Positions 11,041 through 45,812 of a stretch of DNA of 64,000 bases are shown piece after piece; the stretch's first letter is position 1; each line of letters starts with the position of its first letter. Both the position numbers and the translations under genes were made by a program. The stretch is from a virus (lineage: Duplodnaviria > Heunggongvirae > Uroviricota > Caudoviricetes). Under the pieces are notes generated by a model. That model saw only the letters and a list, made by a program, of their open reading frames with translations, did not search any database and was not told the DNA's origin. Location of the stretch: the IMG/VR virus record IMGVR_UViG_3300017987_005500. One strand, written 5' to 3'.

Positions 11041-12873
11041 TTATGCTGCTTTTTTAAGATTGCTTAGTTCACTTTCCATATCTTTTATATTACTTCTAAG
11101 AACTTTAATTCTTCCATTTAATGCTTGAGAACATGATGTTTGATCAGCATGTTTTCTTATTTTAGTACATAACTTTTCTGCTTTTCTAAGATCTATAATT
11201 CTTGCTTGTGTAGCTTTTATTTCAAATGTCAACATACATGCTGACTTAACTTTAAATGATTTACCTCTACATGCTCTTGCAGCTTTTGATGCAAGTCGAC
11301 TATATGCTTTATAACTCATAGTCATTAATAGAGCAGCAGCTGCAGCACCTGAGAGTATAATAAATCCACCAGCCAATGCGGGATTTATTTTCATTTTTGC
11401 TCCTAACTCAGAAGCTCCTTTAACACTTCCCATAAGATCCATAAACATATTCTTTGGATATTTCATCTTACCAGCTATATCTTTCCACCATGAAGAGTCT
11501 TGTCGAGTCCACCAAGAACCTTGACCCGCTCCTCCAGCTCCGCCAGATCCTCCACTAGGTCTCTTTCTTGGACCAGGTCCTGGATCTCTTCCGGTTGATT
11601 TATATGTGTCATATCTTTCGCCAGCTGCTTTAAGTTTCTCAGCAGCTTCTTCAGATCTTGCATTGACTTTTGCTTTTTCAGCAGCTGACATATCTGCATA
11701 TCCCGGAGTATGATCAGGATGAGCTTTGAACATAGCTTTTCTTGCTGCAGTTTTAAGTTTTTGTAATTTCTCTAACTTAGCAGCATCAACCTTTGCTTCA
11801 GTTAAATAAAAACTTTCACCATGAAGAATATCATGATTGATTGTTTCACTTAATATACTTCCTAATATTCCAACTGAAGAAACATCAGGTTCTATAAAGT
11901 CATATCCAAGAGTCTCTGAAATCATATCTAATAATATTTCAGATATACCTTCTCTATTTTCTGGGAAGGTTCCTTCAACTGTATAATATAATATTTCATA
12001 ATCAGTAGCTTCATCTAATATAAATGCTTTATGATTATCATCTTTAACTGACTGCATTATAGACTCTCTTAATGAAGCAATGAAAACTAATGAGTCAGTA
12101 TGTTCTTGTAATGTATATTCAATATTTTCTCCAACAAGAGTTTTCTTTCCTTTTGTAAGAGTCTTTTCATATGTCTTCCAATTATTCTTTTTGATACCAA
12201 TTGAAATTCCCCATAACATTTTTACCATAGATAATATAATTACAATAGCTCCTGCCCAAACTCCAATTGCCCCAATTGCCATAGTTGTAGGAATCGTATA
12301 TACTATTGCTGATAAAAATGAAAGTATTGTTGCAATAATTGAAATCAAATCACCTGTATCACCCATTTCTTTAGATATTTGTAAACTAATATCTTTAGAT
12401 TGTTTATCAGTTCTTGTAACAAGTTTTGCAATAATTGGAGCTGGCATTTGAGCTAATATCCATACTAGCGAGGCAACAAATGAGATGGGTACTGCATAAG
12501 TTATCGACCTACCATAAATCATTACAACTTCCATTATACCTATATATACGGTACTAAGAAGATTAGCTACACCAAACTCAGTAACATCTGCTAAATCTTT
12601 TTTAAGTTTTGATGCAGGAGCTTTTCTTGACTTTTTAAATTCATTAAAATGATTTGTAACCATTTTATGAATTTGTCTATATTTAGGATCAGACTCCTTA
12701 GACTTAAGAAGTTCCTGTCCTTGTTTTTTCTCATCACCTGAAGGTTTTTTAACTCTTGAAAACTTTGACATAACCGCTTTAAGTTTATCAAGAATTTCTC
12801 CTTCAACTACAAACTCATATTCTGTCATGTTATCTGAGAACATACCTTCTAAGTATAAGTCAATAGGATTCAT
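11041..12873 (-). CDS. Multi-pass membrane protein with internal J-domain; putative virion/ejection protein
   Basis: KTAARKAMFKAHPDH...AAEKLKAAGERYDTY (J-domain HPD), Gly-rich linker, several hydrophobic helices, C-terminal Cys-containing coiled coil. Confidence 0.6.
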   Translation of the reverse strand: MNPIDLYLEGMFSDNMTEYEFVVEGEILDKLKAVMSKFSRVKKPSGDEKKQGQELLKSKESDPKYRQIHKMVTNHFNEFKKSRKAPASKLKKDLADVTEFGVANLLSTVYIGIMEVVMIYGRSITYAVPISFVASLVWILAQMPAPIIAKLVTRTDKQSKDISLQISKEMGDTGDLISIIATILSFLSAIVYTIPTTMAIGAIGVWAGAIVIILSMVKMLWGISIGIKKNNWKTYEKTLTKGKKTLVGENIEYTLQEHTDSLVFIASLRESIMQSVKDDNHKAFILDEATDYEILYYTVEGTFPENREGISEILLDMISETLGYDFIEPDVSSVGILGSILSETINHDILHGESFYLTEAKVDAAKLEKLQKLKTAARKAMFKAHPDHTPGYADMSAAEKAKVNARSEEAAEKLKAAGERYDTYKSTGRDPGPGPRKRPSGGSGGAGGAGQGSWWTRQDSSWWKDIAGKMKYPKNMFMDLMGSVKGASELGAKMKINPALAGGFIILSGAAAAALLMTMSYKAYSRLASKAARACRGKSFKVKSACMLTFEIKATQARIIDLRKAEKLCTKIRKHADQTSCSQALNGRIKVLRSNIKDMESELSNLKKAA

Positions 12874-15386: not shown

Positions 15387-15644
15387 TTATGGGGCAGCTC
15401 CAGATTGTCCAACACATCTTGGAAACCATTCAGCGCCATAATCCACAGTAACAGCACCATCACAAAATGCTGTATTTTCTGAAGTTTTATCATCAACATA
15501 TTCAATATCATATCTGGTACCATTATGTGTAAGACAAGGAACCTGATTATTATCTAAATAATCTGTATTATCTCTCATTTCAGTTAATACTTCTTTTAAA
15601 ACATATAACCCTTTTCCTTTTGGTGCTGTCCAAGTAAATGACAT
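15387..15644 (-). CDS. Putative radical SAM substrate peptide 2
   Basis: MSFTW start, EMRDNTDYLDNN..C motif, Cys at 37/61/77 in a 4-residue register; same operon as two rSAM/SPASM genes. Confidence 0.55.
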   Translation of the reverse strand: MSFTWTAPKGKGLYVLKEVLTEMRDNTDYLDNNQVPCLTHNGTRYDIEYVDDKTSENTAFCDGAVTVDYGAEWFPRCVGQSGAAP

Positions 15645-15655
15645 ATTTATACTCC

Positions 15656-16123
15656 TTATACATTCGATGGGTTATAATAATGTAACCAATTATATTGGAC
15701 AGATGCATGCCAATCTGTATTAGCAGATGAATTATCAGTTGAACATCCTGGATCATATGCTGCATTATCACTATTTAAAATTGTTGTGTAATTAGGTGTC
15801 CAATAAATACTGCAATATCCATAACATCCATGAAAACCCCCATTATACCCAGCATTATCAACTGATTCAGCAGTTCCACAATAAGGGACATATTGATTTA
15901 TATAATTTGCAGTACATACATTATTATTATCTGTATCATCAAGAGCGTTTCTTACTTCATCAGTAGGATTATAAGGAGTTAAATATGATCCTTTTGTAAC
16001 AGGTACTGATGACCAAGACCAAGAACTAAGACCAATATCTGAACGCACCGTATTTATGTTATCTTTTAATTCCTCATAATGACTTGCTTTTACTTGTTCA
16101 GCATCAGACCATACGAATGACAT
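15656..16123 (-). CDS. Putative radical SAM substrate peptide 1
   Basis: MSFVW start, EVRNALDDTDNNNVC motif, C/Y/N/W/H-rich C-terminal half. Confidence 0.55.
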   Translation of the reverse strand: MSFVWSDAEQVKASHYEELKDNINTVRSDIGLSSWSWSSVPVTKGSYLTPYNPTDEVRNALDDTDNNNVCTANYINQYVPYCGTAESVDNAGYNGGFHGCYGYCSIYWTPNYTTILNSDNAAYDPGCSTDNSSANTDWHASVQYNWLHYYNPSNV

Positions 16124-16126
16124 AAA

Positions 16127-16645
16127 TTACTCCTTATCTTTAACATCCTTATCAGAACAACTAAAAATTGTATCAATATAATGTTTTGATAATTCAAATG
16201 ATGGAGGGTTAAATGATTGATAAGTTCTTAATCTTTCTGATAGACTTTTAAATAAATGAATACAATCTCTAAATGACAAAAATCCATCTAGGAAATTTGT
16301 CAAAAATGATACTCTAATAGAAATAGATTCTAACTTCAATGTATTTTGATTATAATTATATAAAAACATTGACATACTTTTAAGAATTTTAATATCATCT
16401 TCAGACGTTTGTCTCTCTAAAGTATTGAACATTACCAAGTCAGTCATTTTAGTAAGATCAAGTTCTGTAATTACCTTATCATCATCTTCCTTTATCTTCT
16501 CATCTTTATATAATATCTCAGCACAATAAAACATCTTTTCCATAATCTCTTTTACAATAGAAGCAGACCCTTCAAAGATAGTATTTAATCTTGGTCCATT
16601 AATAAATTCAGTAATTTCAGTTTTTATTTCTTCAAATGATTGCAT
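16127..16645 (-). CDS. Helical accessory protein of the rSAM cluster
   Basis: 172-aa ORF between the rSAM genes and the peptide genes. Confidence 0.5.
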   Translation of the reverse strand: MQSFEEIKTEITEFINGPRLNTIFEGSASIVKEIMEKMFYCAEILYKDEKIKEDDDKVITELDLTKMTDLVMFNTLERQTSEDDIKILKSMSMFLYNYNQNTLKLESISIRVSFLTNFLDGFLSFRDCIHLFKSLSERLRTYQSFNPPSFELSKHYIDTIFSCSDKDVKDKE

Positions 16646-16660
16646 AATTTCTCCATTTAT

Positions 16661-17965
16661 TTAATTACAAAAAAGTTTATCAATTTCCACCAAACTTTCA
16701 CGTTTGCTATTATTTATTTTATCCAATAATGAATAAAACACTCCAACTTTCTTTAACCCTTTAACTAATGATATTATCTTAGTATGTTCTAGCATACAAA
16801 CAACATCATTAGGATAAAACAAATCATATGAATTTTCAAATTGAGATCCTAAACATCCACTTCCGCATAAAGTATTAAATAATGTGCAATGATCACATTT
16901 AGGAAAATTCTTTGTTAAGCATGACTCTATTGAAATCATTAACTCAGGTTTCTTTACATCATATACTTCAAATTCAGGAAGTTTAAGTTTCCCTATTTCA
17001 AACCATTTATATGCCAATCTATGACATGGGACAATTGTCATATCTCCAAGTCTTATCATTAATGAAGATTGAATTGAACAACCTATACCTCTTACCGTAG
17101 TTGTAAATAATGTAGATAATATATTCAATCCTTTTTTAGATAAAATATAGTCAACCATTGTATCATGATCTGAATTGCATATTCTTTTATATGCAACCTC
17201 AACCAAATACTCCATAAAACTTCCAAATTCTTTTATCTCTTCCTTATTCCAATCTGAATTTCTTACCTCTAATAAATATAAAGATTTAATTGGAATATCA
17301 TATTTCTTATACATATCAATATACCAATCAATATTATCTTTCCATTTATAAATATTAGATGAATGAATCATTGGATGGAAACCAGAACGTTTATTTTCTT
17401 TTACAAATTGGAATGCTCTTTCATAATATGCTTCATCTCTTATGTCTTTAATTTTCCCTTTATAGGGTCTTGATATCTCACAATGAAATCCTTCAACTGA
17501 AAGACTTATCATTATCTCTTTATCTTTAACAGCTTCTTGAATTTCATTTGTTTTCTTTTCATCAGTCAAGAATGTCCCATTGCTAGGAATTGTAACAGCT
17601 CCATACGTTTGAGAATATTCAGAGAATATATCAATTAACTCTAATCCTATTTTTCTATTTAATATCTCTCCTGAAAATAATAAGATTTGAGTCCTAACCT
17701 TATTGTCCATTAACCATTTATTAAATTCTCTTGCATTCTTTAATATATTCTCTTTCTTAAGACTTTCTTCATTATAATATTGATCGCCAAACTTATTATA
17801 ATAACAATACTTACATGCTAAATTGCATTTCTTATCAATTATTAATTCAATTGAATTATAACTTTCTAATATATCCGGATCCCTTTTTCCTAAATAAGCA
17901 CTTAAATGCCTCTTCCTAATTATGTCAGTTACAAGTTTGTTATTTTCTTCTTGGTAAGATTTCAT
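16661..17965 (-). CDS. Radical SAM/SPASM peptide maturase
   Basis: CNLACKYC; SGE; SPASM GC...PCHRL...CDHC....LCGSGC......C. Confidence 0.9.
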   Translation of the reverse strand: MKSYQEENNKLVTDIIRKRHLSAYLGKRDPDILESYNSIELIIDKKCNLACKYCYYNKFGDQYYNEESLKKENILKNAREFNKWLMDNKVRTQILLFSGEILNRKIGLELIDIFSEYSQTYGAVTIPSNGTFLTDEKKTNEIQEAVKDKEIMISLSVEGFHCEISRPYKGKIKDIRDEAYYERAFQFVKENKRSGFHPMIHSSNIYKWKDNIDWYIDMYKKYDIPIKSLYLLEVRNSDWNKEEIKEFGSFMEYLVEVAYKRICNSDHDTMVDYILSKKGLNILSTLFTTTVRGIGCSIQSSLMIRLGDMTIVPCHRLAYKWFEIGKLKLPEFEVYDVKKPELMISIESCLTKNFPKCDHCTLFNTLCGSGCLGSQFENSYDLFYPNDVVCMLEHTKIISLVKGLKKVGVFYSLLDKINNSKRESLVEIDKLFCN

Positions 17966-19269
17966 TATTCGCTTTTCCTCGCATTAGATACAATTTTATT
18001 TATTAATTCAAATGCTCCATTACCAAATAATCTTATTACACTTAATGGAGTTACATGCCAAGAGGATGTTACAAAGAAATTTTCTATAGGACAATATGAA
18101 CATGCATTTAAAAATATCGCCAATACTTCAGCAGCTCTTTTATCTTTGTATATAGGACTTACTTGATTAGAACTTGCACATTCCATAATCGTTGCTGTAG
18201 CAGTACAAACTCTATGAGTATAATTATCATGCAATGATCTCATGTGTAATTTCATAAATTTATGATCAAGTTTATAATATTTCTTATATACTTCAACAAT
18301 CCCACTCTTTAAATAATCAACATCGTCGTTGGTATCATTATCAAGAGTTGCAATTGAGTTAACATGATCATCATATACAAAGTATAAAGGTCTGTGACAT
18401 AAATGCATTCCATTCATTGTATCAATTGAAACATTAGAGTCACCAGCAGAGCATGTAAATTCTCTCTGCTTATTTGTATAATCTCTCATCCTAACTATTG
18501 AGGATGCCCATCTATCTGGGTATACTAAAACAGGAACTATATTTTTTAGTTCCTTAAATCTTCCTTCGTGTAATAATCTTGCTGTATTAGTTAAGTAATT
18601 ACTGAATATTTTTCCATCGTTAGATGTATAAGCTCCTGGACATATTATGGATTCTCCTATTTGCATAGGTTTGAATTTATCTCCAATAATATCCTTAATC
18701 ATTCCAGCAAAGTCATTATAATGAGAGAAGTATTCAAATGCTTTATCGTCATTGGTTAATGTCTTAAAGTTATCAATACTTCCAGTTGATTTAAAATGAT
18801 AATTAAATACACATTTATGTTTGACCAATGTCTTAACAATTTTAATAGTATTCTTTATTAATATTTCATCCTTTAACCCTCTGTTTTCTTCATTAAATAA
18901 TCCATCATCTGATATTTGCAAAGACAGTCCCAGTTTGTTTTCTGAGAGTGTCTTTGAAAATTTATCAAAATGTTTTGGAAATGTCATATTTGATGAAATT
19001 GAAACTTCCGTTAAATTTGGAAACAATTTTTTATACTTATCAAAGTTGTCAGAAATAATGTCTAAATGTAAAGTTGGTTCCCCGCCCCATAATGAGAGGA
19101 TGGTTACTTCATCTTTATTAATTACGTCAGGGATTTTAGGATCTTCTAACCACTTCATTAGATCCTTATCCATATTCTTTATCGCTTCAGTCTTCTTAAT
19201 GTAACAATATTTACATTCAAGTGTGCACTTAGCTCCACCGAATATTGATAATGCTTTGTATTCATTCAT
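17965..19269 (-). CDS. Radical SAM enzyme with partial SPASM/Twitch domain
   Basis: CTLECKYC, WGGEPT, CSAG...LCHR, CSYC; stop overlaps the next start. Confidence 0.85.
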   Translation of the reverse strand: MNEYKALSIFGGAKCTLECKYCYIKKTEAIKNMDKDLMKWLEDPKIPDVINKDEVTILSLWGGEPTLHLDIISDNFDKYKKLFPNLTEVSISSNMTFPKHFDKFSKTLSENKLGLSLQISDDGLFNEENRGLKDEILIKNTIKIVKTLVKHKCVFNYHFKSTGSIDNFKTLTNDDKAFEYFSHYNDFAGMIKDIIGDKFKPMQIGESIICPGAYTSNDGKIFSNYLTNTARLLHEGRFKELKNIVPVLVYPDRWASSIVRMRDYTNKQREFTCSAGDSNVSIDTMNGMHLCHRPLYFVYDDHVNSIATLDNDTNDDVDYLKSGIVEVYKKYYKLDHKFMKLHMRSLHDNYTHRVCTATATIMECASSNQVSPIYKDKRAAEVLAIFLNACSYCPIENFFVTSSWHVTPLSVIRLFGNGAFELINKIVSNARKSE

Positions 19270-19290: not shown

Positions 19291-19635
19291 TTATTGAGCA
19301 ATGAATTTTTCGTCTATATAACTCCAACCCACTTCTGGTATTGGACTTTTATTTGTGAGATCTATAAAGTTCTCTCCAAGCTCTTCAATCCTATACCAAG
19401 ATTCAATTCTATATAAATTTACAATGTTAGTGACTACATTGTCTTCAATTAAAGCATGTGGAATTAATGGCATGTCAAATTCATCATTCTCATATGTCCA
19501 ACCAATTGTAGGTTGAGGAATTATGTCTGTAACGTCGATAATTGTTTTGCCTTGAGCTATCAAATTGTCAGCAACAAAAGGACTCCCAAATTCAACAACT
19601 ACAACATTATTCTCTACTTGAACATATTTTGCCAT
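19291..19635 (-). CDS. Tail-fibre-associated protein with two P..GW.Y....F repeats
   Basis: PQPTIGWTYENDEF and PIPEVGWSYIDEKF. Confidence 0.6.
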   Translation of the reverse strand: MAKYVQVENNVVVVEFGSPFVADNLIAQGKTIIDVTDIIPQPTIGWTYENDEFDMPLIPHALIEDNVVTNIVNLYRIESWYRIEELGENFIDLTNKSPIPEVGWSYIDEKFIAQ

Positions 19636-19650
19636 ATTTTATTTTCCTTA

Positions 19651-19995
19651 TTAAGGTGCTGTGAATATTCCATCTGCATAACCCCAACCTACTTCAGGTT
19701 TTGGAATTATTTGATCAATGTTTACTAAATTATCTCCTCCAGCAATTGCAGCTTGAGCGTCAACGTCATTATATTCAACAATTGAATCAACAGCATCACT
19801 TACTATTTTCGCCCATTCATATACTGGAGCATGATAATCATTCCCATCATATGTCCAACCTGTACTTGGTTTTGGGTCTTCCTCAGTAACGTCCTGAATC
19901 TCTAAACCTTTTGCTAATAGAGCATCAAGATCAGATTGTTTATCAATTACAATTCGATTAACAACGCCATCAATTATTTGTGCATAATCTGCCAT
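19651..19995 (-). CDS. Tail-fibre-associated protein, paralogue of 19291..19635
   Basis: PKPSTGWTYDGNDY and PKPEVGWGYADGIF; also 114 aa. Confidence 0.6.
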   Translation of the reverse strand: MADYAQIIDGVVNRIVIDKQSDLDALLAKGLEIQDVTEEDPKPSTGWTYDGNDYHAPVYEWAKIVSDAVDSIVEYNDVDAQAAIAGGDNLVNIDQIIPKPEVGWGYADGIFTAP

Positions 19996-20193: not shown

Positions 20194-21210
20194 TTATTTT
20201 ACTTTTACCCAATGTCTTCCATCAACTTCAATTTCTTTAGTTGGAGGTCCCCATAATTTACTAGGTTCTTTCTTCTTATATAAGGCAACAATTCTTTCAG
20301 GATATTCTTTAATCATATCTCTTGACATTTCAGTAAGATCACCATTTGCATTATTCATTAATGGAGTTCCTATCGGATATTCTTTATCAACATAAGCTAA
20401 TGTCCATCCTGCTACGGCAATTGGAACAGCTTTATCTTTTCTTACTCCAACTCCAAATCCAAAAGTATTTGAAGCAATACCCATAACTGCCATTTGACAT
20501 TCTTTATCACAAATTTTAGCGCCTTCTGCTGTGTCATAATAACATTTGCCATGAATCTTTTTTTCATTAGGATATAATAATTGAAAGTCAGCGACATCAT
20601 TCCATACAGCATTCCAAAACTTATCAGCAATAAGTTCCATATCAAGTCCAGCAGTTGTATCACTGGAAAACATAATATCAATTCCTGAAGTTGTATCTAA
20701 GATATCTCCTGTTGAAGAGTCTATTGTACATCTTCTCATTGCTGGGTAAGGTCCTGGTAATTCTCCGCCAAGTGAAAAGTAATTTTCAGATGAGAATGAG
20801 GAAGCATTTATTTGATAACCATCTCCATTATCATTTATGAAATAAATATTATTATCATCTTTGATATATATCTTACCATAACCTGAAGCAGGAGCTGCTG
20901 GATCAGTTGACCTTTCTTTTAATATAAATTCAGTTCCATCAGCTGATACATTGTTTAATGTAAATCTATCACCTGACTCATTTACAAAATAAATATTACC
21001 GTCGGTTTTTACATATAACACACCATATTCAGCTACAGAAGAAGGATCATAACCAATTCCTTTAATTTCTTGTATAGCATTTACAGTTATATTTGTCGAA
21101 GACAAATCTGTGAAGTCAGCGGTTACTCCATTTATAGTGCCTATATCAGCTTCTGTGATATAACCTCGAGTAATGTCTGCTCTAGTTAAATTATAAGTTC
21201 TCTCTGCCAT
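20194..21210 (-). CDS. Tail fibre with peptidase G2/IMC-like autoproteolytic C-terminal domain
   Basis: Two P....G.[LI]Y.K.D.NIYF.N..G repeats; NAVWNDVADF and GIAS..FG...G...VPIAVAG. Confidence 0.65.
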   Translation of the reverse strand: MAERTYNLTRADITRGYITEADIGTINGVTADFTDLSSTNITVNAIQEIKGIGYDPSSVAEYGVLYVKTDGNIYFVNESGDRFTLNNVSADGTEFILKERSTDPAAPASGYGKIYIKDDNNIYFINDNGDGYQINASSFSSENYFSLGGELPGPYPAMRRCTIDSSTGDILDTTSGIDIMFSSDTTAGLDMELIADKFWNAVWNDVADFQLLYPNEKKIHGKCYYDTAEGAKICDKECQMAVMGIASNTFGFGVGVRKDKAVPIAVAGWTLAYVDKEYPIGTPLMNNANGDLTEMSRDMIKEYPERIVALYKKKEPSKLWGPPTKEIEVDGRHWVKVK

Positions 21211-21336: not shown

Positions 21337-21819
21337 CTATTTGATTGCTATCTTAATTCTTTTTGCTAATGTTTTCCACCATCGTTTCCAATCTTTATGA
21401 CCATACCAAATTGGAGCAGCAACTACTATTCTTAATTTTCCTTCACCTCTTCCAATATGAGCACTACATTTGGTGATTTTATCAGTTGCTTCAATTCTCT
21501 TTTCAAGTTCTTCAGAAGAATATTTACATTTTTTAGTAAATCTAAAAATTACAAAAGATACCCAATCTTTATCATGACCTTCACATGAAGATCTCATTTC
21601 GATACCTTTTATATTTTTTAAATTATTTAACCATTTATCTTCAAGATGAGCATCTACAAATATTCCATTCCAATCTTTTTCCTCATGCTGGTTAGGACAT
21701 CGTCCCCTTATATGAGGACATTTCTTTTCATATACTGCTTCATATGCAGCACATGGAGCATTTGAATTTAATGTAATATGTTTATTTTCTTGTAAGTATT
21801 TAAGATATTTATTAATCAT
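21337..21819 (-). CDS. Hypothetical protein, possibly TYW3-like fold
   Basis: SSCEGH resembles the TYW3 TSSCSGR loop (weak); N-terminal YLKYLQE motif. Confidence 0.35.
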   Translation of the reverse strand: MINKYLKYLQENKHITLNSNAPCAAYEAVYEKKCPHIRGRCPNQHEEKDWNGIFVDAHLEDKWLNNLKNIKGIEMRSSCEGHDKDWVSFVIFRFTKKCKYSSEELEKRIEATDKITKCSAHIGRGEGKLRIVVAAPIWYGHKDWKRWWKTLAKRIKIAIK

Positions 21820-22254: not shown

Positions 22255-22437
22255 TTATTGATTTAATCCACCTTGATCATCTGCTAATCTGGCAACTTCA
22301 TTATGAGGATGTGTGCCACAATAGAGACATCTCTCAACTAAATATACTGTGTTAGGATCATCACTTCTACATGATTCCATAAGAGTAAGATTGCCATCAC
22401 AATGACCACATTTCTTCTTCAACATAGTATCTTCCAT
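22255..22437 (-). CDS. Small zinc-ribbon protein
   Basis: CGHC...CLYC. Confidence 0.55.
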   Translation of the reverse strand: MEDTMLKKKCGHCDGNLTLMESCRSDDPNTVYLVERCLYCGTHPHNEVARLADDQGGLNQ

Positions 22438-23210
22438 TATATTATTCCTTTATGATTTGGGAGACCTGCTAATTTATTTAAGCTTCTTCCAGGTCCATTA
22501 GGAAATAATTCATATAATTCTTTAAGTTTAACTCCTGTATGTTTACTAAGCACTCTAATCATTGGACCTATATGATTTTTAATATAATAGGTTCTTACAA
22601 AGTTGATTATTTTAAAATGCTCAGGAGTTAATTTTGTAATACCTTCATCTTTTGCATTATATACTACCCACTCTGGAGAATAATCATCTACAAAGAATAA
22701 ATACCCAGTTGGGTTAACTCTAAATCTCTTCCCTTTAAAACTTACAGTTTTATATTTAGCAAACTTTACATCAGCTTCAACTACTCCATCATATTTTGCA
22801 ATTCCCATAGTAAAGATCATCTTCATAAGATTATCATTATGGAATACAAATTTTGTATTAGACTCAAATAAATCTGATTCATGTAAACTTGTGATTTTAA
22901 TAGTCTTTCCCATATTAGATGAAGATGTTCTAGCTTCAAATTCATCATATACTCTATTCTCTCTAATCAATGCACTAGTATCTCTTACTGTTTGCATAGA
23001 AGCTTTCTTATCAACACCTTTGAAATTCTTTAATGTCTTAAACAAAGGAAGTTTAAAGTATATAACAGTACCTGCTTTAATATTTAAACCAGCATTGTAA
23101 ATAACTAAACCAAAATCTTTTTTTGTAGATATTAATGTCACATTCTGAGTCACAAAAGCAGTTGGATTCATATCCATTTCATTTAAATAATGCAAATATA
23201 AGTCTATCAT
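22437..23210 (-). CDS. dsrC: Fusion of an unknown N-terminal domain and a Cys-free DsrC/TusE-like domain
   Basis: Last ~105 aa match sulfate-reducer DsrC as I recall it (FKGK.F.V...G.L..DD..PEWV...EGI...EH.KII.F...YY.KN.I.PM.R.LSK.TG.KLKE.YELFP.GPG...K.AGLP); both C-terminal Cys are replaced. Confidence 0.85.
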   Translation of the reverse strand: MIDLYLHYLNEMDMNPTAFVTQNVTLISTKKDFGLVIYNAGLNIKAGTVIYFKLPLFKTLKNFKGVDKKASMQTVRDTSALIRENRVYDEFEARTSSSNMGKTIKITSLHESDLFESNTKFVFHNDNLMKMIFTMGIAKYDGVVEADVKFAKYKTVSFKGKRFRVNPTGYLFFVDDYSPEWVVYNAKDEGITKLTPEHFKIINFVRTYYIKNHIGPMIRVLSKHTGVKLKELYELFPNGPGRSLNKLAGLPNHKGII

Positions 23211-36120: not shown

Positions 36121-37209
36121 TTATGAATTAGTTCCACCTGGATTAAATAATGAAACAAAATCAACTCCGTCAAATGATGCAGACCCTTCACAAGCATATG
36201 ATAAATTTCCAACAACTGAAGAAGAACCTGAAGAAAATGGAAATGTAATCCTACTTATAAATGAATGATCTCCACTAGCATTTGATCCACCAATTGAAAA
36301 TCCATGTTCAGTTGAATTATTTCCTGATAATTGATTTGCAGTAGAGTTTAAATTGCCAACATTATTTGAAGTTCCTGAGTCAAATGGAAATTCCATTCTC
36401 TCAATTGAAGATATAATTCCTCCACTATAACCTCCACAATGAAATCCATGAGTTGATGAATTAAATTGAGAACCACTTCTTCTTGAGCCACTTAAATTTC
36501 CAGTCACTGGGACAGTTCCTGAATCAAATGGAAATGTTATTCGATGTATATTTGTCGTCGCAAGAGATCCATTATAACCGCCTATTAAATATCCATGTTG
36601 AGAAGAATTACAACAATTCATTGCATGACTTCTTAATCCTGATAAATCTCCAACACGATCTGCAGTTCCTGAGTCAAATGGAAAAGTAAATCTATGAACA
36701 AATGATGCTGCAAGAGAAGGGTAACCTCCCATATTATAACCATGAATTGAAGAATTACAAGCTGCCGCATATCTTGAAATAACTGGTAAATTTCCTACAT
36801 GACTTGAACTTCCTGAGTCAAATGGAAATTCAATTCTACCAATAGTTGAAATATATCCCGAACCTTGTTCTCCGCCTATTACAAATCCATAATTAGATGA
36901 ATTGCATGCTCCAAAATATGCTCGACTTCCTGACAATGTTCCTATTATTGAAGCAGTCCCTGAGTCAAATGGGAAAGTCATCCTACTTATTGTTGAAGAT
37001 TTATTTGGAGCTGGCCGACCTCCTGCTACATAACCATATTTATCTCCCGGTCCATATCCACCTAATACTCTTTTCCATTCAGAGTCTCCTCTTACTTTTA
37101 TATCTCCTTCATCTTTATAATAATAAGAATCCCCTGTATTAGGATTGCTCGGATCGACATTTTGTTTATATTGTAATCCTTTTCTATTCTGACCTTTTAT
37201 CATTGGCAT
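36121..37209 (-). CDS. Beta-propeller, paralogue 4
   Basis: Six FPFDSG-type repeats. Confidence 0.75.
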   Translation of the reverse strand: MPMIKGQNRKGLQYKQNVDPSNPNTGDSYYYKDEGDIKVRGDSEWKRVLGGYGPGDKYGYVAGGRPAPNKSSTISRMTFPFDSGTASIIGTLSGSRAYFGACNSSNYGFVIGGEQGSGYISTIGRIEFPFDSGSSSHVGNLPVISRYAAACNSSIHGYNMGGYPSLAASFVHRFTFPFDSGTADRVGDLSGLRSHAMNCCNSSQHGYLIGGYNGSLATTNIHRITFPFDSGTVPVTGNLSGSRRSGSQFNSSTHGFHCGGYSGGIISSIERMEFPFDSGTSNNVGNLNSTANQLSGNNSTEHGFSIGGSNASGDHSFISRITFPFSSGSSSVVGNLSYACEGSASFDGVDFVSLFNPGGTNS

Positions 37210-37376
37210 AATTTTATCTCCAACTCTTAGTTAAGAAACGAACTGAAATGTATCTTTAAAAAAAATGTACCTTGTCCTATAGGAAAACCATATAGAATTT
37301 AGCACATTATTGCTTATATTTAATCTAAAGTATAATTAAATGAATTATACCATTATTCCCCTATGGGAGGACAGTA

Positions 37377-38453
37377 TTATAGTATTTCTAACAATCGTTT
37401 TGCTGTATTTAAGAATGTCCATTGTTGAGCAAACTTTTGAGCTCTAACTCTATCCTTATATAAGTAATCTTTAGTTTGATAAGGATCTAATAAGATGCTA
37501 CATATTTTAATAAACTCATTATAACATTCTTCATTATAAATTGTTTTTCCCATTGTAATAAAACCAGTTCGATTATTATCAATGACTTCATTAACAGCTC
37601 CGTCATTAATAGTAACTGGAAGACAACCTGCCGCTTGTGCCATTACATAATTAATTCCAAAAGACTCATGATAAGTCTGAGGATGAATCATTAAAGAACT
37701 TGAAGCAAACTCATATGCTAATTCTTTCATTGATACAGCATTATGTAATATACAACCTTTCGTCCTTTGTAATTCAGAGAATGCTTGCTCATAATCTCTA
37801 TCGCCTTGAGTGTCTCCATATATATTCATTGAAGAAAATATATGAAACTCTAAGTCATCTCTTTTAGTTTCATGACATATGTCTTTATATAAGTCAGCTA
37901 ATACATCAATTCCTTTATATGGTATTGAAGCAAAGATTAACTTATTATCTTTTCTTTCAGTATATCCTGAAAATAGAAAGGGGTCGATAGAGTTGCCTAT
38001 TACAGCAAATTTATCTTTATCAACCCCATAATATTTTGATAATGTTTCCTTTTGCCATTCACTTACACATAATATCTTTTCAATCCTATCAACAACTTTA
38101 GGATTCACTAACCAATATAATATATGATCTTGGTCATAAGCATCATGTGTATAATAAAAGATTCTCTTATCTGACATAAATACTTCTTCAGGTAAACACC
38201 TATTTAATATAACAATGTCTGACTCTGGTAATATCTGAGGAAGGTTATTTACGTTATGCAATAACCTATTAAAACTCTGATTAGGCACGTTTATTTGAGA
38301 ATTGGTTAACAATATAACCGACTCATTATTTTCTGCCAGTCCTTGCGATAATAGAAGGAATGAAGTCTCACTTCCTCCTAAAGGTTCTTCATAAGGAGTT
38401 GTTAAATTAAACGGTTGCCCTTTATCAATCATTAAGATTTTTCTTGGATTCAT
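37377..38453 (-). CDS. GT-B (GT4-like) glycosyltransferase
   Basis: GGSE, HD, CVSEWQ, NSID, IFAS..YKG, ESFGI...AQAAG. Confidence 0.85.
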   Translation of the reverse strand: MNPRKILMIDKGQPFNLTTPYEEPLGGSETSFLLLSQGLAENNESVILLTNSQINVPNQSFNRLLHNVNNLPQILPESDIVILNRCLPEEVFMSDKRIFYYTHDAYDQDHILYWLVNPKVVDRIEKILCVSEWQKETLSKYYGVDKDKFAVIGNSIDPFLFSGYTERKDNKLIFASIPYKGIDVLADLYKDICHETKRDDLEFHIFSSMNIYGDTQGDRDYEQAFSELQRTKGCILHNAVSMKELAYEFASSSLMIHPQTYHESFGINYVMAQAAGCLPVTINDGAVNEVIDNNRTGFITMGKTIYNEECYNEFIKICSILLDPYQTKDYLYKDRVRAQKFAQQWTFLNTAKRLLEIL

Positions 38454-38482
38454 TATTCACCTATTCGCGTATTATAAATTGT

Positions 38483-39550
38483 TTAATCAAATAAACCATT
38501 AAAGTCAGTTGTGTCTACTGGAGCACCGTATGACTTATTAGTAGTTAAATTTCCAATTACTAAACTTATTCCTGAATCAAATGGAAAAATAAACTTTTCA
38601 ACGATAGACGTTAGTGATTCATTCCCTCCCATAAAATATCCGTGAGATGATGAATTTACTCCAGCACCTGATATTTTACTTGTAGATAAATTTCCAACAT
38701 TTGAAGAAGTTCCTGAATTGAATGGAAACATAATTCTATTTATATGTGAATGAGCAACTCCAGCATTAAATACTCCCATTGCATATCCATATTCTGAAGA
38801 ATTACAACCCATTGGATTAGAACCACTGTGAGCCATATTTCCAACATGTGATGATATTCCAGATGAAAAAGGAAAATCAATTCTCATAATTCTAGATGAA
38901 TATGCAACTCCATTATATCCTGCTAAAGTATATCCTCTTATAGATGAATTTACTTGAGCAGTATTTGCAGCTGCTGAATAATTTAAATTCCCAACAACTG
39001 ATGAAGTTCCTGAAGAAAAAGGAAAAATAATTCTATTTATATTAGAAGTATATAATCCACCTCCCGGAGCTCCTCCCATTGTAAAACCATGTTGAGATGA
39101 ATTACAACCTCCGATTGAATAAAATGTTGATGATAAATTCCCAACATTTGAAGAATTTCCTGAATCAAATGGAAAAGTAAATCTTTCAATAGTTGAAGTC
39201 AATGTCGGACCCGCTCCTGTTTGACCACCCATCACAAATCCATACTGACTTGAATTACAACCTGCGCAATTGCCGGGAGAATCATTTAAATTTCCAATTA
39301 TTGTAGAAGTTCCTGAATCGAAAGGAAATTGAATTCTATCAATAGATGATACATAATTTGTGCCACCACAATTATACCCAAATCCTTTTCCATCAATTAT
39401 AACTTTCCATCTATTTTCATTATCATCCCATACTCTTCCATATTCAAGAATTGTGTCAAACCAAGTGTCTCCTCCTGTTATATTTCCGGAAGGAGCTTCT
39501 GCTTGAATATGTGTATAACCTTTTACTTTCTTTGGTATATTAATTGCCAT
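38483..39550 (-). CDS. Beta-propeller, paralogue 5
   Basis: Six FPF[DSN]SG repeats. Confidence 0.75.
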   Translation of the reverse strand: MAINIPKKVKGYTHIQAEAPSGNITGGDTWFDTILEYGRVWDDNENRWKVIIDGKGFGYNCGGTNYVSSIDRIQFPFDSGTSTIIGNLNDSPGNCAGCNSSQYGFVMGGQTGAGPTLTSTIERFTFPFDSGNSSNVGNLSSTFYSIGGCNSSQHGFTMGGAPGGGLYTSNINRIIFPFSSGTSSVVGNLNYSAAANTAQVNSSIRGYTLAGYNGVAYSSRIMRIDFPFSSGISSHVGNMAHSGSNPMGCNSSEYGYAMGVFNAGVAHSHINRIMFPFNSGTSSNVGNLSTSKISGAGVNSSSHGYFMGGNESLTSIVEKFIFPFDSGISLVIGNLTTNKSYGAPVDTTDFNGLFD

Positions 39551-39568
39551 ATTATTAAGCTCCTTATA

Positions 39569-40651
39569 TTAAACAAACATTGAAACAAAGTCTGTATTAT
39601 CAATTCCACTTTGTTCGCTTGAAGTAGTATTTAAATTTCCTACATTTGAAGCGGTGCCTGAAGCAAATGGAAAAAGTATTCTTTGAATATAAGAAAAATA
39701 AACACTTCCATAACCGCCAATACAATAACCATAATTAGTTGAATTAACTACGGCATGTGTATAATTTGTGCCAATTAAGTTTCCAACTGCCGAAGCGGTG
39801 CCAGAGTCTAATGGGAAAGCAAATCTATCAATTGTAGATATTCTTGAACCATTTATGGCGCCAGAAATATTAAAACCATGATTAGATGAGTTACAACATT
39901 GATTCCAATATCGCTTTCCTGATAAATTTCCAGTATGACTTGCGGTTCCTGAAGAAAATGGAAATGTAATTCTATCAATTGTAGATGCGTAAGCGGTATC
40001 TTGATATGCTCCAACTGAATAACCATGGAGTGAAGAATTACATCCTCCCTGAGTATCAGTTGTAGTTGATAAATTTCCAACTGTTGCAGCGGTTCCACTC
40101 GTAAAAGGAAATATAATTCTTTGAATTGTTGAAACAAGAACACTTCCAGTATAACCGCCCATATTAAAACCATGGGTTGAGGAATTACAACCTGCCGGAG
40201 CGTTTACTGACGATGATAAAGTCCCAGCAGTTGTAGCGGTACCAGAGTCAAATGGAAATTCAAATGATCGAATTGCATTTTGACTAACAGATCCATTCGT
40301 TCCACCCATGACATAACCATAAGTTGAATCATTAACTCCAGCAGCATCTCTTAATGTTGAATTTAAATTTCCAACATAATCTGCCGTACCGGAGTCAAAT
40401 GGAAATGTAATTCTTTGAATTGATGAAACTGGCCCAACGTTTCCACCAACTGAAAATCCCTGACTATAAGTAGGAGTATAATTTATAAATTCTCCATCAT
40501 AATAATAATATACTTGTCCATCATCTGCGGAAAACCAGCAATCTCTCTCATTAGGATTTGCTGGTTCATCAGCTTGTCTAAAAGTATTTCCTTTTGTTTT
40601 TGACCTATTTTCACCTGAAGTTACCCAAAAAGGTCTTGAGGGAATTGGCAT
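39569..40651 (-). CDS. Beta-propeller, paralogue 6
   Basis: Six repeats; N-terminal QADEPANPNERDCWF. Confidence 0.75.
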   Translation of the reverse strand: MPIPSRPFWVTSGENRSKTKGNTFRQADEPANPNERDCWFSADDGQVYYYYDGEFINYTPTYSQGFSVGGNVGPVSSIQRITFPFDSGTADYVGNLNSTLRDAAGVNDSTYGYVMGGTNGSVSQNAIRSFEFPFDSGTATTAGTLSSSVNAPAGCNSSTHGFNMGGYTGSVLVSTIQRIIFPFTSGTAATVGNLSTTTDTQGGCNSSLHGYSVGAYQDTAYASTIDRITFPFSSGTASHTGNLSGKRYWNQCCNSSNHGFNISGAINGSRISTIDRFAFPLDSGTASAVGNLIGTNYTHAVVNSTNYGYCIGGYGSVYFSYIQRILFPFASGTASNVGNLNTTSSEQSGIDNTDFVSMFV

Positions 40652-40670
40652 AATAATACCTCCCTATTTA

Positions 40671-41333
40671 TTACCCATTATATTCAACAGCTTTTACAGC
40701 AGCTTTATCAGCAGCAGCGTCGACATTTACACAAGCTGTATAATAACCGGTTAATATAGTTTGCAAATTAGTAACCATGCTATCAAGAGATGCAACACAA
40801 GAAGCTTGATCATAAATTGCTTTGAGAGTTGTCATATTTGCATCGACTGCTGCTTTTGTTGGAGCATCAAGATCAGGATAATGTCCATTCAATAATGTAA
40901 CGACTCTACAAACATCTGCGATAAGGTCATTATAATCATCAAATTGTTTTTTAGCAACTTCTTTGAATAGGACTTTCTTCATAGCTTTTACAGAAGCTAA
41001 TTCATCAGAGACTGTAATTGAATGAGTTCCTAAATAATCAACAAGAGTCATTGGTGGAGTGATTCCATCATCAATTGGAACATAATTATCTTCAGCAAAT
41101 CCAATAAGCTCATCTTCAGTTATCTTTTTAATTGAAAATCTTCCTTCAATTGTCATAAGAGCTTTACTTACAAGATCGCCATCTCCTTCAATATATCCAA
41201 AGTGAATCATATCATCTGAGATAACTCCAGAAAAAGTAACTCCATTGAAATGTTCATCAAGAAAAGGTGCTAAAAATTCAGATCCTGTAAGACCTGCTTT
41301 AACTGGGGTATATTTAATATAAACTTTTGCCAT
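40671..41333 (-). CDS. Hypothetical tail-associated protein
   Basis: C-terminal VDAAADKAAVKAV resembles the end of 50297..50857 (fibre-chaperone-like). Confidence 0.5.
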   Translation of the reverse strand: MAKVYIKYTPVKAGLTGSEFLAPFLDEHFNGVTFSGVISDDMIHFGYIEGDGDLVSKALMTIEGRFSIKKITEDELIGFAEDNYVPIDDGITPPMTLVDYLGTHSITVSDELASVKAMKKVLFKEVAKKQFDDYNDLIADVCRVVTLLNGHYPDLDAPTKAAVDANMTTLKAIYDQASCVASLDSMVTNLQTILTGYYTACVNVDAAADKAAVKAVEYNG

Positions 41334-41354
41334 TTTATTTTCTCCTTAAGTTTA

Positions 41355-41897
41355 TTATGATGCTTGATATACTCTTACACTCATTAACTGAAAAGTTCCA
41401 GTGTATGTATCAGTGACACCTTCTCTTGATATTTTAACTGCAAATCTTTGAGTTGTTGATCCAATTAAAGCATTTGCAATTTTACCATTAGTTAATGAGA
41501 CACTTGTCATTTTTCCAGTATTTGTTGATGAAGAAGTTAAAGTATCTGAAGCACTTACATCAGGACTTCCTTCAACTGGAGTGTCAGTTTCATCAACTGC
41601 CCAACAATCTGTGCCAAGAATTATTGACTTTGAATTATCAGCTCCATTGAGAGCATACTTTAAGTCGAATAATACGTCCTTAGTGATGTCAAATCCATCT
41701 GGCATATTAAAGTTAAACCAAATAGATCCTGTCCCATCAGGAGAGAAGTCTGCGGTATCAAAGATATCGAAAATCGTCCCAGCATCAATGTCAGTATCAT
41801 TTTCATCCATGATAAATTCATCTGGTTTTATTTCAATTTCATTAATTCCTCCGCCAGAACCTCCTCCGCCGGTAACGAAGTCTGAATAATTAGACAT
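41355..41897 (-). CDS. Virion beta-sandwich protein
   Basis: Gly-rich N-terminal linker followed by a beta-rich domain. Confidence 0.5.
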   Translation of the reverse strand: MSNYSDFVTGGGGSGGGINEIEIKPDEFIMDENDTDIDAGTIFDIFDTADFSPDGTGSIWFNFNMPDGFDITKDVLFDLKYALNGADNSKSIILGTDCWAVDETDTPVEGSPDVSASDTLTSSSTNTGKMTSVSLTNGKIANALIGSTTQRFAVKISREGVTDTYTGTFQLMSVRVYQAS

Positions 41898-41925
41898 TAT
41901 ATTTCCTCCCGTCTTTCGTTTATAA

Positions 41926-41935
41926 TTTGTTCTTA
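41926..41935 (-). promoter_or_regulatory. Putative late-promoter motif AGAACAAA
   Basis: 29 nt upstream of 41897. Confidence 0.55.
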
Positions 41936-41938
41936 TAT

Positions 41939-42724
41939 TTATTCATTCCAAAATACTATACAATATCCTGGAGCGCCAGCTCCTCCGTTTCGAGAACCTC
42001 CTGAAGCTCCATAACCTCCCCCGCCTCCATTCCCATAACCTGTCGCAGCAAATCCAGTTTGGCCACTTGCTCCGCCTGCTCCGCCATTGCCAATATAAGA
42101 ACAACCGCCGCCGCCGCCTCCGCCAGTTCCTCCGGTATTTCCTCCATTTGCCATCCCAAGCATTCGAGAAGATCCTCCTGCCTGTGGAAATGCTTGACCT
42201 TGCCCTTCGTAATACCCACATCCGCCAGCAGACCCACCAATTGAATATAATAATGGTCCTCCTCCTCCATGTGAATGTAAATATGTGGATGTATTTCGAT
42301 TTTGATTTCCATTTGTGTAAAAATTTTCATTTTCTGAATAATTAAATGCCCACAATCTTCCTCCACCTCCTCCTCCTGAGCCAGATGATCCTGCATTCCC
42401 TCCATTAGCAATAATACCTTCGATTGAAGTACTTCCTCCATTACTTGCAGGTTGCCCAGCAGCTCCTCCCGCTCCAATTGTAATTGAAACATTAGCAGTT
42501 ACATATAAAGACCCAATTACAACTTCTCCGCCACCGCCTCCTCCGCCACAAATTCTTGCGACATTGGAACCATAACCTCCCCCGCCGCCTCCAGCAACTA
42601 AAATAAATGAAATTAAATTGACATCATTAGGTTTTATCCAAACTCCTGAAGAAGTAAATTCTTGTGAAGAAACTTTTCCACCACCTCCTGCACCAAATCC
42701 CATTATTGCTGATATTCCACTCAT
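41939..42724 (-). CDS. Glycine-rich tail/fibre protein (paralogue of 26512..27339)
   Basis: MSGISAIMGFGAGGGG...FTSSGVW.KP...GYCIVFWNE. Confidence 0.75.
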   Translation of the reverse strand: MSGISAIMGFGAGGGGKVSSQEFTSSGVWIKPNDVNLISFILVAGGGGGGYGSNVARICGGGGGGGEVVIGSLYVTANVSITIGAGGAAGQPASNGGSTSIEGIIANGGNAGSSGSGGGGGGRLWAFNYSENENFYTNGNQNRNTSTYLHSHGGGGPLLYSIGGSAGGCGYYEGQGQAFPQAGGSSRMLGMANGGNTGGTGGGGGGGCSYIGNGGAGGASGQTGFAATGYGNGGGGGYGASGGSRNGGAGAPGYCIVFWNE

Positions 42725-42742
42725 TATATTGTCTCCTTTTAA

Positions 42743-43543
42743 TTAAAATTCAATTCCCCAACCTCTTGTTGAATCTAAGTAAGTAAACGTACAAGTTACA
42801 TAATTTGTATTAATATTAAAGTTCTCTGCTAACTTCATTATATTACTGCCATTTCGATTAATGATTGTAGCATTTGAAGTCATTAGACCGCTTAAGTCAG
42901 TAACTTTAATTCGATCTCCGGCATTGACTTCAGCGGAAGTTGGTAAGGTTATATTAATAGCTGACGTCCCATCTCCATCTAACCAAATATGATCATTAAC
43001 ATTTGCTTCATAATCGTCATCGACAATTTGAAGACTCCATATTCTTTGAGAGAATGATTGAGTAACAACTAATTTCCATCCAACGTCAGATGAGGTAGAG
43101 TCCATAAACATAAATTTCAACTCTAAGTCATCAACATCACATATAACATTACTTTGAACTCCGTCTATATTATTACCATTTCGATCAATGGTTAAATTAT
43201 TAGTTGCAAAACTTCCTTTTAAATCTAAAAAATAAACTTCATCATTTGCTTCAGGATTGGGAGGAAGTTTTAAAGTAAAAGCAGCTGAAGTTGAATCGCA
43301 TATTAAATAAGTATTTGATGAAACAACATCTCCATTATTAGTATGGTCTTTATCAACTCTTTCAAGACCTGCTGAAAATGTAACATCTCCGGTTCCTTCA
43401 TCAGCTCCAGTACTTTGCATTGTAATTCCTGATCCTGGAAGAGCTTTTGTAATAACTGCTTGCCCGGAAGTTGTCGTATTAAGGTCTTCTCTTAAAATAG
43501 TTCCGTCCTTAATTTGATCTCCAGTTAATTGAGTTCGTCCCAT
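42743..43543 (-). CDS. Mosaic virion fibre protein
   Basis: QIKDGTI.REDLNTT.SG N-module shared with 48187..49575; two copies of the [IL].LP..P...D...[FV].D......N...I.RNG..I module. Confidence 0.65.
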   Translation of the reverse strand: MGRTQLTGDQIKDGTILREDLNTTTSGQAVITKALPGSGITMQSTGADEGTGDVTFSAGLERVDKDHTNNGDVVSSNTYLICDSTSAAFTLKLPPNPEANDEVYFLDLKGSFATNNLTIDRNGNNIDGVQSNVICDVDDLELKFMFMDSTSSDVGWKLVVTQSFSQRIWSLQIVDDDYEANVNDHIWLDGDGTSAINITLPTSAEVNAGDRIKVTDLSGLMTSNATIINRNGSNIMKLAENFNINTNYVTCTFTYLDSTRGWGIEF

Positions 43544-43555
43544 ATTATATTTCCT

Positions 43556-44650: not shown

Positions 44651-44660
44651 ATATAACTCC

Positions 44661-45797: not shown

Positions 45798-45812
45798 ATA
45801 TGAACTCCTTTA

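Follow-up and report, generated by a model that had tools for sequence, protein, structure and literature searches.

Radical S-adenosylmethionine (SAM) enzymes with a SPASM domain are known as maturases from bacterial peptide natural products. More recently, such maturases have been found on a defence effector, in the HXS system, and on an archaeal Cys-rich protein, and here we describe a cassette that adds a large family to these cases. It lies on the minus strand of a 64,000-nucleotide stretch of DNA, called the window in its full length, from a virus of the Caudoviricetes (IMG/VR record IMGVR_UViG_3300017987_005500), and it encodes two radical SAM enzymes (rSAM-A and rSAM-B), a small helper protein, and two putative substrate proteins, one long (pepL) and one short (pepS). 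HXS, with which we compare it first, is an anti-phage system of the form HxsD-HxsB-HxsC-HxsA (NCBIfam TIGR03976-03979; Li et al., Nat Commun 2026, PMC13128918), in which HxsB and HxsC, with HxsD, mature the HxS-repeat protein HxsA (PMC13128918). Maturation involves N-terminal processing and a change of +8 Da on SHRSS, and the mature form, proposed to bind DNA via its basic repeats, blocks phage DNA entry from the periplasm; the hosts are Pseudomonadota in 99.7% of cases (PMC13128918).

The likeness of the window cassette to HXS lies in two adjacent radical SAM enzymes, one of the SPASM type and one shorter, in a small non-enzymatic partner (which binds one enzyme in HXS), and in a substrate with short repeats of His/Ser type that is covalently modified in HXS and would be so here. 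The cassette differs in having a pair of substrates that both carry a conserved M-x-F-x-W leader, in its helper, a helical bundle of 170-200 aa unrelated to HxsD, in its acidic cores, whereas the repeats of HxsA are basic, and in its hosts, which are viruses and contigs labelled as Candidate Phyla Radiation (CPR) or DPANN. Because the five parts are co-inherited, the cassette is, as far as sequence can tell, well supported as a twin-enzyme maturation system dedicated to two leader-tagged proteins. We consider it probable that it is a self-contained system, similar to those for peptides made by ribosomes and modified after translation (RiPPs), which modifies pepL and pepS as two substrates, with a use at the virion surface as the favoured role.

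The five genes are closely packed. rSAM-A (17965..19269, minus strand; 434 aa, with the motifs CTLECKYC and CSAG...CHR) is followed on the same strand by rSAM-B (16661..17965; 434 aa, with CNLACKYC and a seven-Cys SPASM pattern), the helper (16127..16645; 172 aa, predicted to be all-alpha with seven helices), pepL (15656..16123; 155 aa, with a long, two-motif leader) and pepS (15387..15644; 85 aa, with a short, one-motif leader). The stop of rSAM-A and the start of rSAM-B overlap by 1 nt, the remaining intergenic gaps measure 15, 3 and 11 nt, and an AAGGAG ribosome-binding site stands 7-8 nt 5' of the ATG of both pepL and pepS. A scan for promoters and terminators inside the five-gene block gave no signal above shuffle expectation (window G+C about 30%). 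The leader of pepL comprises residues 1-70 (15914-16123), the last being the invariant Cys70, and its core spans 15659-15913; that of pepS comprises residues 1-37 (15534-15644), followed by a core of 48 aa (15390-15533). An identical rSAM-B protein is encoded on a 308 kb contig. An earlier, sequence-only reading of this DNA had described five packed open reading frames (ORFs), all of which we found at the same coordinates, on the minus strand, and had further proposed a motif common to pepL and pepS (MSF[VT]W, then E[VM]R[ND]..D..DNN..C), a full Cys-rich SPASM region in rSAM-B, a helical helper, and a dedication of the small proteins to the twin enzymes; these proposals hold up in the results given below.

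The strongest evidence for a dedicated system comes from the distribution of the cassette. Among the candidates that a word-indexed search scored, at least 679 are relatives of rSAM-B at E <= 0.001. Close relatives, with 50-80% identity (L002-L005, L081 and L082; surveyed loci are cited by L numbers), keep the full arrangement of a NUDIX protein, a protein of about 300 aa, rSAM-A, rSAM-B, helper, a protein of about 155 aa and one of about 85 aa, with an M15 peptidase farther on. Distant loci, with 31-40% identity, came from genuinely cellular contigs (with genes for TatC, TatA, RNase Y, NusA and H+-PPase) and further from 23 contigs of GTDB and 49 of IMG/VR; there, ORFs adjacent to the enzymes begin with M-[AGSP]-F-x-W, followed by E-[IVL]-x-[DNT]-N-x-D ... 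D-[DN]-x-x-C. The order rSAM-A, rSAM-B, helper is nearly universal, both in about 80 distant loci and in nearly all of 67 non-redundant ones. A 42-column hidden Markov model (HMM) of the leader found its matches next to the two enzymes in 57 sequences out of 83, and none away from the cassette in the roughly 0.97 Mb covered, so the motif shared by pepL and pepS is not a product of chance.

Where flanks of at least 4 kb upstream and 2.5 kb downstream were available, as in 45 non-redundant loci, rSAM-A is present in 42, the helper in 41 and two or more leader-bearing ORFs in 31. The 14 loci with fewer than two include false negatives, as in L065, whose pair is homologous but diverged, and in L001 two proteins of 654 and 815 aa with leader-like segments take the place of the precursor pair. 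Leader, A-B-helper and the long and short pair thus co-occur in dozens of distant loci, and the small proteins appear to be dedicated partners of the twin enzymes and helper. The neighbourhood survey that the earlier reading had called for, in which about 650 flanking ORFs from the 67 loci were clustered and representatives scanned, did not find enzyme pairs commonly lacking the peptides, nor any cofactor or nucleotide-metabolism gene conserved with the pair.

Members of the family were found on CPR- and DPANN-labelled contigs and in many uncultured viruses. We did not accept the taxonomic labels of metagenome-assembled genome (MAG) contigs as evidence of host, because several such contigs are identical to IMG/VR entries. 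Searches of GenBank/INPHARED phages with the operon (megablast) and, by tblastn, with rSAM-B, a consensus-type precursor and a 338-aa neighbour discussed below gave no match beyond a single one at chance level. In a quick maximum likelihood tree, whose backbone did not resolve, the clade of the window forms a long and fully supported branch, and loci linked to fibre-like genes are interleaved with those linked to glycosyltransferase (GT), Tat or Hxs genes. Operon DNA was found in sediment, marine-sediment, hydrothermal-vent and seawater metagenomes of several studies, and two metagenomes not flagged as possible sources contain about half of the operon words; none of the sequencing runs is listed as RNA. 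The habitat is an anoxic setting and would therefore suit the cassette, since radical SAM enzymes are sensitive to O2. Literature searches found no published description of an A-B-helper-precursor cassette.

Both enzymes belong to Pfam Radical_SAM (PF04055; 37.8 bits for rSAM-A and 40.6 for rSAM-B, cut-off 29.5), with the CX3CX2C cysteines conserved at 98-100% in 53 rSAM-A and 56 rSAM-B homologues. In rSAM-B, the SAM-cluster cysteines C47, C51 and C54 are invariant, as are C296, C314(-H-R), C357, C360, C367, C371 and C390 (100%, in 16 and later 56 homologues); these correspond to the SPASM pattern C-x9-17-G-x4-C ... C-x2-C-x5-6-C-x3-C ... C, which binds two auxiliary 4Fe-4S clusters, yet the TIGR04085 HMM gave 21.3 bits, below its cut-off of 27. 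A conserved extension of about 40 aa precedes the SAM motif. In rSAM-A the CX3CX2C cysteines are C15, C19 and C22, with no N-terminal domain ahead of the motif, which starts at residue 15, and the alignment of 53 homologues showed just three further conserved cysteines (C273, C291(-H292) and C393) and no seven-Cys SPASM motif. These three residues suggest that rSAM-A is of the half-SPASM or twitch-like type, with one auxiliary cluster held by three Cys ligands and apparently open. The two enzymes are distant paralogues, alignable over the SAM core alone (25% identity, E 3e-7). In four loci (L065:5383-7200, and also L064, L067 and L068) the rSAM-B homologue, 605 aa in L065, carries an intein-like insert of about 170 aa, which ends in HN followed by Cys and splits CX3CX2C between the first and second cluster cysteines.

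The named families that either enzyme touches are all peptide or protein maturases, at scores many-fold under the curated cut-offs of 268-520 bits. For rSAM-B the NCBIfam matches are PapB (67.8-73 bits), nif11 (52), QhpD (40), SCIFF (39), YhhB (39) and CbpB (36), and for rSAM-A they are PapB (39-41), GrrM/OscB (31-33), AmcB (28) and HxsC (24); the PapB family model NF047865 requires at least 340 bits, against 67.8 for rSAM-B and 39.4 for rSAM-A. Among solved structures, a profile comparison puts CteB (PDB 5WGG, E 1e-10) nearest to rSAM-B, and rSAM-A has no match in PDB by sequence. The maturase of CXXX-repeat peptides, to which the sequence-only reading had likened the cassette, does not fit, since rSAM-A reaches 25.8 bits on TIGR04115 against a cut-off of 350 and neither pepL nor pepS contains CXXX repeats. 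Because maturase families alone are touched, and all of them far under their cut-offs, we place the two proteins, by sequence comparison, in a deep, unnamed branch of maturase-type radical SAM enzymes.

In all but a few loci the helper comes after rSAM-B. AlphaFold2 with 60 homologues gave a seven-helix, all-alpha model (pLDDT 91.7), in agreement with the helical protein foreseen in the earlier reading. It matched no Pfam or NCBIfam model; Foldseek against PDB returned nothing at E <= 1e-3; the best VIA-align hit (9jht_B, Z 9.2) is inside the noise range of helical bundles; AFDB yielded just two MAG proteins, both uncharacterised and apparently belonging to the family, and the ESM Atlas gave no usable match. 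It is not HxsD (hhalign probability 0.15% against true HxsD). No position in an alignment of homologues reaches 85% conservation, which makes an enzymatic role unlikely. A second helper paralogue stands directly after rSAM-A in L050, L051, L054 and L060 (order A-H-P-P-B-H), so that each enzyme in these four loci is followed by a helper of its own, which points to a one-to-one pairing. Ahead of the SAM motif (which starts at residue 15 in rSAM-A and 47 in rSAM-B) neither enzyme leaves space for a RiPP recognition element (RRE) domain, and the all-alpha helper does not have the RRE fold. Since the enzymes lack such a domain, the helper, which would be non-catalytic, most likely either presents the substrate or scaffolds the enzyme. 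A complex prediction of helper and pepS residues 1-50 scored 0.15 against a mark of 0.32, which is evidence neither way.

The precursors carry the leader M-[SAG]-F-x-W ... E-[IVLM]-[RKQ]-[DNT]-N-x-D ... D-[DN]-x-x-C and occur in two forms, one of each in most loci: a short one with a single motif, like pepS, and a long one with two motifs, like pepL, joined by a linker of W..LPV type (W-x-W..VPV in pepL). In 32 short-type precursors M1, W5 and E22 are invariant, F3, N26 and D28 nearly so, and conservation ends past the leader-terminal Cys, where a variable core begins. With their conserved leader, their variable core and the modifying enzymes encoded next to them, the precursors fit the general definition of RiPP systems. 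In the 115 kb of phage genome searched, pepL and pepS are the sole leader-bearing ORFs. An exhaustive search of 1.84 billion representatives with the leader profile found 1,019 clusters at 50% identity, 161 of them at E <= 1e-10; among the top 150, most are 70-250 aa long and have the motif beginning at residue 1, and a minority, of 370-670 aa, have it internally. The leader is fused to a ConA-like lectin domain, Laminin_G_3, in L030:2499-4190, where the domain is N-terminal and ends just ahead of the leader, and in L055:2989-4185, where it lies between two leader motifs.

The core regions of 91 unique precursors, which when pooled amount to about 10,000 aa, are rich in Asp (13%), Ser (13%), Tyr, Asn and Thr (10% each), with Gly at 8%, His at 5%, Lys and Arg together at about 3% and Cys at about 1%. 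They show strong autocorrelation at periods 4 and 8, with a consensus tetrad [Y/H/V]-[D/N]-[S/T/G/A]-[T/G/S/D], about 18% of the tetrads beginning with Val and not with an aromatic residue. The cores of the five-member window clade are atypical of the family. They show no periodicity, measure a mere 48 aa for pepS and 85 aa for pepL, and are rich in aromatic residues and Cys, and in pepL also in Asn. Invariant in that clade are the leader residues, C37-L38 and Y49 in pepS, and C70, C100, C104 and C127 in pepL. Since these cores hold invariant Cys, cross-links based on Cys, of thioether type, are the simplest guess for the window clade, and chemistry on Tyr/His-x-Ser/Thr would be the obvious alternative for the family at large.

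From these features we infer bond chemistry, helper role and product fate as follows. pepL and pepS would be ribosomal substrates, whose N-terminal module, present once in pepS and twice in pepL, would serve as the recognition element, and the region past the conserved Cys would be the part modified. rSAM-A, with one auxiliary cluster, and rSAM-B, with two, would use 5'-deoxyadenosyl radicals to abstract hydrogen from core residues while the helper presents the substrate or scaffolds the enzyme. The likeliest products would be intramolecular cross-links, either thioethers from the invariant Cys of the clade or bonds from aromatic residues (Tyr, His, Trp) to C-beta, or both. The modified proteins would be stapled in the anoxic cytoplasm of the host before virion assembly.

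That these products belong to the virion is suggested by the surroundings of the cassette. A family of about 330 aa, which includes a 338-aa protein in the window (20194..21210, minus strand), is encoded 5' or upstream of the cassette at 14 loci, that of the window among them. Its members share a C-terminal domain of about 130 aa (residues ~205-338) behind variable N-termini of 120-760 aa, and the model of the window protein is confident for residues ~210-338 alone. When this trimmed model was compared with 48,161 PDB representatives, the top eleven matches were all virion proteins of phages or archaeal viruses: the base of the phi29 head fibre gp8.5 (Z 8.5, rmsd 2.6 Å over 93 aligned residues), a C-terminal fragment of the phi29 appendage gp12 (Z 7.8), and decoration or cement proteins of HFTV1, Sf11, BB1, FCWL1, XM1 and TW1 (Z 6.2-7.9). 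Two further capsid entries have Z 4.3, and unrelated rows begin at about Z 4; BFVD and the Atlas gave weaker matches, from viruses only. The 338-aa gene thus has a virion-protein fold in its C-terminal domain, and it is treated here as context and not as a demonstrated part of the system. Between it and rSAM-A lie two 114-aa paralogues (19291-19635 and 19651-19995, minus strand), each with an internal duplication that ends in a GW.Y...F motif, of which one matches phrog_14370, a family of unknown function; three such paralogues occur in L002 and none in L004, L081 or L082.

A PHROG tail protein stands just upstream of the cassette in L064-L068, and an M15 peptidase/endolysin lies downstream of it in the window. 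On the strength of the fold match and of the PHROG tail protein, phage cassettes appear to occupy a virion-surface gene neighbourhood. The earlier claim that the cassette is embedded among late tail genes is therefore borne out in part: the upstream neighbour with a head-fibre-base or decoration fold and the downstream M15 peptidase agree with it, but no function could be assigned to most of the other genes nearby, and for the window the narrower label 'tail' is unsupported. No protease, exporter or transporter family is conserved with the cassette across the 67 loci. Because the cassette directly follows a gene of fibre or decoration type, lacks such export functions, and has a leader that is elsewhere fused to lectin domains and long repeat proteins, we favour a virion-surface or structural use over a diffusible peptide or an exclusion factor like that of HXS. 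Taken alone, the proposal that the phage products are late, virion-associated surface components is a tentative one, to which we give slightly less than even weight.

Other members have different neighbours. A GT1 glycosyltransferase follows the helper in 18 loci and is fused to rSAM-A in L006 and L010, and in a CPR subset TatC/TatA, a small RRxFLK protein and a zinc-ribbon protein adjoin the cassette. The GT1 genes, together with the lectin fusions and a beta-helix match in one precursor of L054, also speak for a role at a surface. In L006:1614-3306 and L008:3101-4811, TatC, TatA, a 76-aa RRxFLK protein with a twin-arginine signal and a 120-aa four-Cys zinc-ribbon protein precede the precursors. 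The Tat genes next to precursors in CPR contigs may provide a piggy-back export route for modified proteins. In five loci, among them L059 (10731-11189), a gene downstream of the cassette encodes a protein of about 150 aa with matches to Agglutinin_C and a papain fold (Gln_amidase); it could be a leader protease in those loci and has no counterpart in the window. A wider picture, in which radical SAM cross-links are made in small particle-surface proteins beside a fibre or decoration protein and the same machinery produces modified, sometimes glycosylated, repeat or lectin surface proteins in CPR and DPANN, is possible but rather doubtful.

Elsewhere in the window, three unrelated proteins (11041-12873, 21337-21819 and 22437-23210, minus strand) share a similar N-terminus of M..(D)LYL.YL.E type, which may be a common targeting or processing signal. 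About ten consecutive ORFs of similar size on the same strand (36121-46955, minus strand), mostly of 355-380 aa, have the appearance of an array of paralogues.

Several observations weigh against a structural use at the virion surface. The cores of the window clade, being short and non-repetitive, resemble a peptide natural product more than a fibre. One precursor of L054 hits two beta-helix families of the octad-repeat kind, DUF2345 and Gp5_trimer_C (gp5/VgrG type), but it is the sole case, none of the 32 short-type precursors matching beta-helix Pfam families, and a general identity of the family cores with gp5/VgrG-like spikes is unsupported. Virion incorporation is read from the gene neighbourhood, in which most of the surrounding window genes could not be assigned a function, and many cellular members adjoin TatAC or Hxs genes and not virion genes. 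The family is known from genes and predicted models. All maturase scores are far under their cut-offs, and therefore the bond type cannot be read from homology; a change with zero mass difference, such as epimerisation, may be the chemistry instead.

A rival reading is a classical two-component RiPP, in which pepL and pepS would be cross-linked, a protease either of the host or encoded at an unlinked site would remove the leaders, and lysis would free the small products to act as bacteriocin-like, signalling or anti-host agents. The leader/core architecture, the pairing of two enzymes with two precursors, the presence of Cys in the short cores of the window clade, and the fact that the nearest named families are maturases of sacti- and ranthipeptides all fit such a system, for which thuricin CD, a two-peptide sactibiotic needing two radical SAM enzymes jointly, offers a precedent (PMC12093266). 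However, neither a protease nor a C39-ABC exporter nor an immunity gene is conserved with the cassette in the 67 loci, no RRE domain was found, the neighbours on the phage side are virion genes, and many cores of the family are repeats of 100-350 aa or fused to lectin domains, unlike diffusible peptides. We consider this explanation unlikely, although it is the strongest of those that compete with the virion-surface use.

Less probable still is that the cassette is an effector system like HXS put to phage use, with matured proteins at the envelope blocking DNA entry of competing phages (superinfection exclusion). The architecture is as in HXS, with two adjacent radical SAM enzymes, a small partner and a repeat-bearing substrate (PMC13128918), and the cores of the family are rich in [H/Y]-x-[S/T] tetrads. 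In addition, four loci of CPR type (L007:1718-5604, L021, L026 and L029) have true HxsB (507 bits, cut-off 370) and HxsD (59 bits, cut-off 50) adjoining the A-B-helper trio, with no HxsC; a tetratricopeptide repeat (TPR) protein and a 197-aa ORF stand between the Hxs genes and the trio, and this ORF, directly upstream of rSAM-A, has a signal or transmembrane segment, HSSHSS and a region rich in D, S, Y and N. Such loci may be hybrids of an HXS system and the cassette. The cassette proteins themselves score 17-36 bits on the enzyme models of HXS: on HxsB (TIGR03978, at least 370 bits), rSAM-A of the window reaches 17 and rSAM-B of L008 36 bits, and on HxsC (TIGR03977, at least 267.9 bits), rSAM-A of L008 reaches 23.9. 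The helper has no match to HxsD (TIGR03976) in NCBIfam, pepL and pepS have neither a signal peptide nor a peptidoglycan-binding domain nor tandem HxS repeats, and PADLOC returned generic, viperin-type radical SAM matches alone. The strongly acidic composition of the cores is also at odds with the basic DNA-binding repeats proposed for HxsA. Because every HXS feature looked for was wanting and the cores are acidic, the cassette is not HXS.

Least probable, and in our view very improbable, is that the enzyme pair acts elsewhere, on the fibre- or decoration-like neighbour, a cofactor or nucleic acid, with pepL and pepS as unrelated structural or accessory co-travellers: the assignment of pepL and pepS as candidate substrates comes from gene association, a fibre- or decoration-like gene is a frequent neighbour, and the leader weakly resembles, by eye, N-terminal motifs of some fibre-like neighbours (L064 and L080), but after A-B-helper the leader pair is the most consistently co-inherited element, also in cellular loci that have no fibre-like gene, genes of cofactor or nucleotide metabolism do not travel with the pair, and the nearest enzyme families all mature peptides or proteins.

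The enzymes, the helper and the leader fall outside every curated model, neither Pfam nor NCBIfam covering the helper or the precursors, and the family links giant and smaller uncultured phages with CPR and DPANN, which are the least understood of cellular lineages. If the modified proteins are indeed virion or surface components, the cassette would represent a new way to build host-recognition or particle-stabilising structures, using a staple made by radical chemistry, and both its helper fold and its leader family would be new. Should the products be diffusible instead, the cassette would offer a rare case of a two-component RiPP encoded by a phage. Under either reading, it supplies two new enzymes, and its leader could be put to use in peptide engineering.

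Set beside the known systems, the cassette shares features with several of them. With CteB (SCIFF) and PapB (ranthipeptide, NF047865) it has in common the seven-Cys SPASM region of rSAM-B and substrates with conserved Cys. It differs from them in that rSAM-B scores about one fifth of the cut-offs and lacks an N-terminal RRE domain, in having a second, twitch-like radical SAM enzyme and a separate helper as obligatory partners, and in that most cores contain about 1% Cys. The triceptide maturases (YhhB, GrrM/OscB, AmcB and FxsB) are approached by rSAM-A homologues, which match GrrM/OscB, AmcB and YhhB next after PapB, and by the tetrads of aromatic-x-small type in the family cores, [Y/H]-[D/N]-[S/T]-x, which resemble omega-x-x motifs. 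In contrast, the scores are 15-39 bits against cut-offs of 310-445 (NF041707, TIGR04261, NF041718 and TIGR04269), the tetrads include the Val-first fraction given above, and the cores of the window clade, although rich in aromatic residues, are aperiodic.

Thuricin CD likewise combines two radical SAM enzymes (TrnC/TrnD) and two precursors (Trn-alpha/Trn-beta) in one cluster (PMC12093266), and is likened here by architecture alone; it is a bacteriocin that Bacillus secretes through dedicated export, its cores are short, and its enzymes contain an RRE. In methanogens, CrpC is a radical SAM/SPASM enzyme that places RiPP-type thioether cross-links on a protein-sized substrate, CrpA, as the cassette might, but it acts as a single enzyme with a predicted RRE on a Cys-rich substrate, with no helper, MxFxW leader or link to phages (PMC13692751). 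HXS is the closest described system in architecture, and the cassette works somewhat like it, as a pair of radical SAM enzymes with a small partner and repeat-bearing protein substrates.

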